In this document: in pieces, positions 37,142-37,164 of the stretch | Numbering within the stretch: position 1 is the stretch's first letter | Layout: every line of letters starts with the position of its first letter | DNA from: Patescibacteria group bacterium | Lineage (GTDB): Bacteria; Patescibacteriota; Minisyncoccia; Phycocordibacterales; UBA9973 | DNA: 64,000 nucleotides | Direction of reading: 5' to 3' | Assembly: GCA_038063535.1 (NCBI GenBank) | Contig: JBBTUV010000004.1 | Location: 20,530-84,529 of the forward strand | The notes under the pieces: model-generated | The model's input: only the letters and a program-made list of their open reading frames with translations | Told to the model about the DNA's origin: nothing | Database searches by the model: none | Made by a program: the position numbers and the translations under genes

Positions 37142-37164
37142 ACGCCCTAGTATATCATATCCGT

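Follow-up and report, generated by a model that had tools for sequence, protein, structure and literature searches.

Bacterial bidirectional promoters have divergent transcription start sites 7-25 bp apart and -10 elements that overlap on opposite strands (10.1101/2020.01.31.928960; PMC10268837; PMC12825309). The optimum spacing is 18 bp, at which A-11 and T-7 of the two elements are reciprocally paired, and spacings of 23 and 10 bp are also preferred (10.1101/2020.01.31.928960; PMC10268837; PMC12825309). In five bidirectional promoters of Escherichia coli, basal activity was too low for competition, and one arm was repressed only under strong activation of the other (PMC12825309). Leaderless mRNAs are marked by a -10 element at a fixed distance of 6-7 nt from the start codon. 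They have been mapped in Deinococcus deserti and in Mycobacterium tuberculosis, where transcription of a large share of genes starts at the A or G of the ATG or GTG with no Shine-Dalgarno (SD) sequence (PMC4007540; PMC3898074). M. tuberculosis also has “closely juxtaposed divergent promoters,” and both mRNAs of its divergent pair Rv1129c/Rv1130 (prpD) are leaderless (PMC3898074). Among CPR bacteria, the only start-site set found was that of Nanosynbacter lyticus, which was inferred indirectly from RNA-seq (PMC12641261), and our literature search gave no relevant paper on leaderless expression in CPR/Patescibacteria.

The window analyzed here is a stretch of 64,000 nucleotides from a Patescibacteria group bacterium (contig JBBTUV010000004.1). 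It contains three divergent gene pairs separated by 17-24 bp, and each gap is probably a compact bidirectional sigma-70-type core promoter driving two leaderless or near-leaderless mRNAs. The arrangement would belong to the described class of bacterial bidirectional promoters and is not a new type of conflict (10.1101/2020.01.31.928960; PMC10268837). As in the bidirectional promoters of E. coli (Warman et al.), the hexamers overlap and binding of one polymerase would exclude the other. In E. coli, however, the second of the two transcripts is usually leadered and in many cases antisense or non-coding, whereas both arms are predicted here to be leaderless mRNAs of conserved genes; the start sites are likewise predicted here, and, unlike in E. 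coli, the whole intergenic region would be core promoter. Compared with D. deserti (PMC4007540) and M. tuberculosis (PMC3898074), the present case concerns an uncultured member of the Patescibacteria/CPR with about 50% GC, in which the TGn extended -10 element is prominent, and it is built from sequence statistics alone. The guaBA operon of E. coli encodes the same two enzymes as one of the three pairs, acting at consecutive steps from IMP through XMP to GMP. In that species guaB and guaA are co-transcribed from one promoter; in the window they diverge over a 23-bp gap, guaB together with purA and guaA together with purH-purE-purM-purC. Bidirectional promoters and leaderless mRNAs are both established, and a mapped leaderless divergent pair is known from M. 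tuberculosis; what is new is the lineage, how compact the gaps are and how deeply the spacer between guaB and guaA is conserved.

Gene pairs and start codons

Genes of the three pairs were identified with Pfam and NCBIfam profiles, and in every pair conserved genes point outward from the gap on both sides. In the first pair, guaB (36038..37141, minus strand) encodes a 367-aa IMP dehydrogenase that lacks the CBS subdomain and is followed by purA (34698..36038), and guaA (37165..38688, plus strand) encodes a 507-aa GMP synthase and heads the guaA-purH-purE-purM-purC run. The second pair consists of a DUF4446 gene (6176..6640, minus strand, 154 aa), followed by infB (4725..6203), and a gene for a NifS/IscS-type cysteine desulfurase of the class-V aminotransferase family (6665..7753, plus strand), which starts with GTG. 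In the third, a prs-like gene for ribose-phosphate diphosphokinase (56243..57022, minus strand, 259 aa, with a short N-terminus) diverges from a gene for pterin-4a-carbinolamine dehydratase (PCD; 57040..57366, plus strand, 108 aa from ATG 57040). The window has six well-supported divergent junctions, and three of them are 24 bp or shorter. The earlier note had described these gaps as 23, 24 and 17 bp long with hexamers at short distances from the start codons, and every coordinate and motif that it quoted for the three gaps was found base for base in the sequence, the hexamers lying at the distances it gave. It had also linked the arrangement to purine salvage and biosynthesis; this applies to guaB/guaA only, and the DUF4446-infB/desulfurase and prs/PCD pairs have no obvious functional link.

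Wrong gene starts, which the earlier note had named as a possible refutation, did not hold up: comparison with profiles, homologue lengths and independent gene calls indicated that the start codons are correct and that the gaps are no longer than annotated. Only one canonical start lies upstream of the conserved domain in guaB, guaA, prs and the desulfurase gene: ATG 37141 is the sole start codon 5' of the conserved domain of guaB, and the desulfurase gene has no canonical start other than the GTG ahead of its conserved IYLDYA motif. Residue 6 of the guaA product aligns with position 1 of the GMP synthase profile, and residue 1 of PCD aligns with position 5 of the 116 positions of its profile. 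Homologues of the DUF4446 protein are 151-158 aa long, compared with 154 aa in the window, with a second in-frame ATG at codon 7. An upstream TTG is present at 57022 for PCD. For guaB and guaA, the same starts were called independently on identical contigs, which come from groundwater metagenomes of the Hainich aquifer. The prs product lacks approximately 22-25 N-terminal residues that are present in all solved Prs structures, and no remnants of this N-terminus were found upstream in any of the three frames. Its closest clade (66-75% identity) is also 258-261 aa long, indicating that the short form is real; more distant relatives have 277-300 aa.

The guaB product was also considered as a GMP reductase. 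This assignment was rejected, as the NCBIfam IMP dehydrogenase model scored 462 bits and the GMP reductase models at most 269 bits (269 for the GuaB1-type model NF052358 and 202-225 for the classical GuaC models). The CBS (Bateman) subdomain is entirely and cleanly absent from the 367-aa protein, which matched the profile in two pieces, while the IMP dehydrogenases of the Nomurabacteria/Patescibacteria relatives L006 and L048 retain it and are about 484 aa long. Both genes of the pair lie in a dense purine cluster at about 33439-43994, which holds, in order, purD, the minus-strand genes purA and guaB, and the plus-strand genes guaA, purH, purE, purM and purC. Such a cluster would be unusual, as CPR bacteria are, to our knowledge, mostly described as lacking de novo purine synthesis. 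Five tRNA genes (Leu-CAG, Leu-TAG, Lys-CTT, Leu-TAA and Cys-GCA) lie 2-32 bp apart at 3977-4416 on the minus strand, and a tRNA-Tyr gene (12011-12094, minus strand) is 100 bp from a divergent protein gene. Two opposite-strand open reading frames, at 15296-16684 (minus strand, 462 aa) and 15314-16666 (plus strand, 450 aa), overlap almost completely.

Predicted core promoters in the three gaps

Promoter-like sequences were searched with a neutral consensus scan covering ±200 bp around each gap. The scan returned just two sigma-70-like sites, those of guaA and DUF4446; both end in the gaps and have their -35 elements in the first codons of the neighboring gene, and no alternative upstream promoter was found within the ±200 bp scanned.

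The region between guaB and guaA (37142-37164, 23 bp, ACGCCCTAGTATATCATATCCGT) is a predicted bidirectional core promoter, with a 12-bp core at 37148-37159 (TAGTATATCATA) carrying both -10 elements. On the plus strand, the guaA -10 hexamer TATCAT (37153-37158) is 6 nt before ATG 37165, and a -35-like TTGAAA at 37131..37136 falls within codons 2-4 of guaB. TTGAAA-16-TATCAT has 10 of 12 consensus matches and is the only sigma-70-like site within ±200 bp of this gap. On the minus strand, guaB has the extended -10 element TGaTATACT (37157->37149), 7 nt before ATG 37141. The two hexamers overlap by 2 bp, TA at 37153-37154.

The 24-bp region between the DUF4446 and desulfurase genes (6641..6664) is likewise predicted to be a bidirectional core promoter. 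The desulfurase -10 hexamer TATACT (6653-6658, plus strand) lies 6 nt before GTG 6665, and the hexamer of the DUF4446-infB operon, TATATT (6654->6649, minus strand), lies 8 nt before ATG 6640; they share 2 bp, TA at 6653-6654. A -35-like TTGATT for DUF4446 (6677->6672, minus strand) is inside the desulfurase gene, and TTGATT-17-TATATT has 9 of 12 matches in the neutral scan. The desulfurase GTG is the only one of the six starts that is not ATG; GTG is a poor leaderless start in E. coli and is used in mycobacteria and Deinococcus (PMC4007540).

Between prs and PCD, the intergenic region is only 17 bp long (57023..57039), and the A residues of the two start codons are 18 bp apart. PCD has an extended -10 element, TGtTACTAT (57025-57033, plus strand), 6 nt before ATG 57040, and prs has the hexamer TATAAT (57037->57032, minus strand) 9 nt before ATG 57022. 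Their hexamers overlap by 2 bp, AT at 57032-57033. An alternative minus-strand hexamer, AATAGT (57034->57029), stands in exact 18-bp register with TACTAT (57028-57033), so that A-11 of the PCD hexamer is paired with T-7 of AATAGT, and its T-7 with A-11. The stronger minus-strand hexamer, TATAAT, predicts a prs start at about 57025 and a 3-nt leader.

Opposite-strand overlap of the -10 boxes, which the earlier note had proposed, therefore holds in each gap, and its expectation that -35 elements would lie in the neighboring coding sequence agrees with TTGAAA in guaB and TTGATT in the desulfurase gene. The guaB and PCD promoters have no canonical -35/-10 arrangement and have TGn extended -10 elements instead, whereas those of the desulfurase and prs have neither TGn nor a -35 hexamer with at least four of six matches. 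All three plus-strand partners have a -10-to-start spacer of 6 nt; three of the six promoters are imperfect in this respect, since the spacers of guaB, DUF4446 and prs on the minus strand measure 7, 8 and 9 nt. Such distances of 6-9 nt would correspond to leaderless or near-leaderless mRNAs, a feature that the earlier note overlooked.

Phased -10 elements and Shine-Dalgarno usage in the window

Spacing between -10 elements and start codons was examined for all 71 genes of the window. TANNNT occurs exactly 6 nt before the start in 16 of them (22.5%) versus 1.4% of 1,597 control ATGs (binomial p = 3e-15), and the extended form TGnTAnnnT occurs at this spacer in 11 of the 71 versus 0.19% of control ATGs (binomial p = 3e-18). 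A count in the window that does not depend on gene calls gave the same picture: 13 of 90 TGNTANNNT sites are followed by ATG at exactly 6 nt, compared with a mean of about 1.5 at other spacers. In approximately 385 kb of metagenome loci from relatives, with the guaBA gap masked, there were 25 sites at the 6-nt spacer and about three at others, and no such peak was present in Bacteroidota control loci. A single sharp peak at one spacer is what would be expected of a start positioned by polymerase, rather than of AT-richness alone.

Shine-Dalgarno sequences are not enriched in the window; SD-like motifs precede 6 of 71 genes, compared with 14% of control ATGs. AGGA, GGAG and GAGG are absent from all six upstream regions of the three pairs, where gaps of 17-24 bp leave little space for an SD sequence; the window contains no 16S gene that would show the anti-SD sequence. 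Phased -10 elements together with this lack of SD enrichment suggest that the genome is largely leaderless, and, because a -10 element 6-7 nt from the start is a leaderless signature, the three gaps look like two leaderless promoters placed back to back. Both a phased -10 element and an SD motif are missing in 43 of the 71 genes, which implies that internal genes must use some other, SD-independent mode of initiation.

TGnTAnnAT boxes are also found 6 nt before eight starts that are co-directional with the preceding gene (7757, 20555, 21618, 23685, 24864, 40156, 57403 and 62652). The upstream gaps of these eight genes are just 3-36 bp, so their promoters would sit where the coding sequence of the gene before them ends, and a promoter of their own may be common among “operon” genes.

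Conservation in related genomes

A search of genome contigs with guaB returned mostly Bacteroidota IMP dehydrogenases, and guaA was therefore used to scan metagenomes instead. Only L006 and L048 from the contig search shared the divergent layout; of these nearest species-level genomes with it, one is from a Candidatus Nomurabacteria and the other is a metagenome-assembled genome of Patescibacteria. Among 68 related metagenome loci holding the guaA N-terminus, guaB is divergent and adjacent in 54, and the gap from ATG to ATG is 23-28 bp in about 36 loci, 25 bp being the commonest length. In the 25-bp family, whose sequence is cat-AATATATYGTGTATACTAGCATATT-atg, the mean information content of the gap is 1.76 bits versus 0.76-0.95 bits at flanking third codon positions, and 23 of its 25 positions are near-invariant, though the guaA products of these relatives are just 62-73% identical to that of the window. 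The core of this family is TATACTA, and its two strands read TATACT and TGcTAGTAT, placed in 18-bp register. The best hexamers of the family are 8 nt from the ATG of guaA and 12 nt from that of guaB, a spacing that predicts leaders of 2-7 nt in these relatives rather than strictly leaderless mRNAs. Conservation at nearly every position exceeds what two hexamers would need and may leave room for an additional function. In the closest relative, L087, whose guaA is 83% identical, the gap is also 23 bp; only the 12-bp core TAGTATATCATA is identical and the spacers differ, as would be seen if constraint acted on the two -10 elements.

The other two gaps can also be followed in relatives. Gaps between DUF4446 and desulfurase are 23-27 bp long in three relatives and have a conserved core, AATATATACTA; TATACT is kept exactly 6 nt from the GTG or ATG in two of the three (L174 and L175). 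Divergent prs and PCD genes are found in relatives too, with gaps of 33-36 bp and non-overlapping hexamers. TATAAT-N10-ATG is present in L167 and L169, and the PCD orthologue of L167 begins MKELLKKKCIPC. One relative has a gap of 217 bp and a hydroxylase gene added beside PCD. The 17-bp gap of the window is the compressed extreme among these relatives.

A gene for a biopterin-dependent aromatic amino acid hydroxylase (PF00351) lies beside PCD in several relatives, convergent in L167 (360-1464) and L168 and co-directional in L171 (167-1283). Gene calls and family scans gave no PF00351-type hydroxylase adjacent to PCD in the window, where the only upstream neighbor is the divergent prs.

Proposed mechanism

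Start codons in the three pairs are separated by the following distances, measured between their A or G residues: 18 bp for prs/PCD (57022/57040), 24 bp for guaB/guaA (37141/37165) and 25 bp for DUF4446/desulfurase (6640/6665). With start sites predicted from these positions, the geometry of the gaps matches the classes of Warman et al. The guaB/guaA and DUF4446/desulfurase gaps would have the “23-bp class” arrangement, in which opposite-strand -10 hexamers share TA; this TA would be positions -12/-11 of both elements, with the minus-strand start 1-2 nt further away. The exact 18-bp separation of the start-codon A residues would place prs/PCD in the 18-bp class.

Transcription would begin at, or a few nt from, the A or G of each start codon, giving two opposite mRNAs per gap with leaders of 0-3 nt. 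As neither a 5'UTR nor an SD sequence would be needed, intergenic DNA could be reduced to the core promoter itself. Upstream contacts would be made through the TGn extended -10 element (guaB and PCD) or through -35-like hexamers in the first codons of the neighbor (guaA and DUF4446). This Patescibacteria lineage would then have a leaderless architecture throughout the genome, of which the three gaps are the form taken by divergent genes. The analysis shows the anatomy of the gaps, the start codons, the positional enrichment and the conservation; from these features we infer where transcription starts, that translation is leaderless and that the polymerases exclude each other.

Two polymerases are expected to exclude each other because their melted regions would overlap, so that one polymerase would occupy each gap at a time. 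Mutually exclusive occupancy, as proposed in the earlier note, is thus in keeping with known polymerase geometry for start sites 15-25 bp apart, and the same has been stated for promoters of this class (PMC12825309). Promoter interference or coupling, which the earlier note had presented as an implication, is only possible, as is anticorrelated expression, given that competition at the five tested E. coli promoters was negligible at basal activity (PMC12825309).

A bolder extension, to which we give little credence, is that most genes in this CPR class (Paceibacteria/Nomurabacteria and relatives) are expressed from extended -10 promoters as leaderless, SD-free mRNAs and that the nearly invariant 23-28-bp spacer between guaB and guaA is one shared promoter that acts as an orientation toggle. 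Each polymerase binding would then pick either guaB-purA or guaA-purHEMC, and the two arms of purine nucleotide synthesis would have anticorrelated or noise-shaped expression; the conservation in excess of what the hexamers need might be read by a further factor.

Alternative explanations

Several other readings of the gaps were weighed. The conserved guaB/guaA block could mainly or additionally be a transcription factor site, for instance for a purine-responsive regulator, with its likeness to -10 elements secondary. The near-invariance of 23 of 25 positions in relatives with diverged guaA would suit an operator, as would the central GTATAC palindrome and the palindromic AATAT/ATATT ends, but L087, from the window's own clade, conserves just the 12 bp that hold the two -10 elements, and every position of the gap falls in an element of one of the two overlapping promoters. 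When the window was searched with TAGTATATCATA and with the core of the relatives, the hits were other -10 boxes only: the near-matches are -10 boxes of unrelated genes (3041 and 3947), with none upstream of other pur genes, and the 15-bp core consensus of the relatives, GTGTATACTAGCATA, has no match. A purine operator is therefore unsupported, and we regard this reading as unlikely. Leadered transcription from promoters inside the neighboring coding sequences, with the AT-rich gaps serving merely as unstructured translation-initiation regions, is quite improbable. The 43 genes with neither a phased -10 element nor an SD motif do show that SD-independent internal initiation must exist, and ATATT directly precedes both ATGs in relatives. 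Against leadered mRNAs stand the single-spacer peak at 6 nt, which fits a polymerase-positioned start better than AT-richness alone, the scan of ±200 bp, which gave no other sigma-70-like site, and the specific conservation of the hexamer cores in relatives.

Compaction alone could leave short AT-rich gaps with functionless TANNNT on both strands. In mononucleotide shuffles, TANNNT at spacers of 5-9 nt on both strands had probabilities of 0.03, 0.12 and 0.12 for the individual gaps, so that for two of them such matches arise in 12% of shuffles; the joint probability over three gaps is approximately 5e-4. This result is modest by itself, but in combination with phasing that is genome-wide and with gap length and core sequence that are kept across dozens of diverged relatives, chance is disfavored, and we consider it very unlikely. 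Mis-assigned start codons, which would make the true intergenic regions longer, seem equally hard to credit. The ATG at codon 7 of DUF4446, the TTG upstream of PCD and the missing N-terminus of prs leave some room for them; the single canonical starts of guaB, guaA, prs and the desulfurase gene, the matching lengths of DUF4446 and prs-clade homologues, profile alignments that begin at or near residue 1 and the agreement of independent gene calls for guaB and guaA all speak against them. Compact bidirectional core promoters thus remain the probable explanation of the three gaps.

Implications

Should the predicted starts prove correct, each of these loci would be a bidirectional promoter in natural minimal form, with two promoters in 17-24 bp and nothing else, and they would be short, conserved substrates for studies of polymerase competition at shared promoters. 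The rule TGnTAnnnT-N6-ATG could be used to predict gene starts and annotate promoters in metagenome-assembled genomes of CPR bacteria. Leaderless bidirectional gaps would help explain the extreme compaction of such genomes, and, if the reading is true, a major uncultured bacterial radiation depends on leaderless, SD-independent gene expression.
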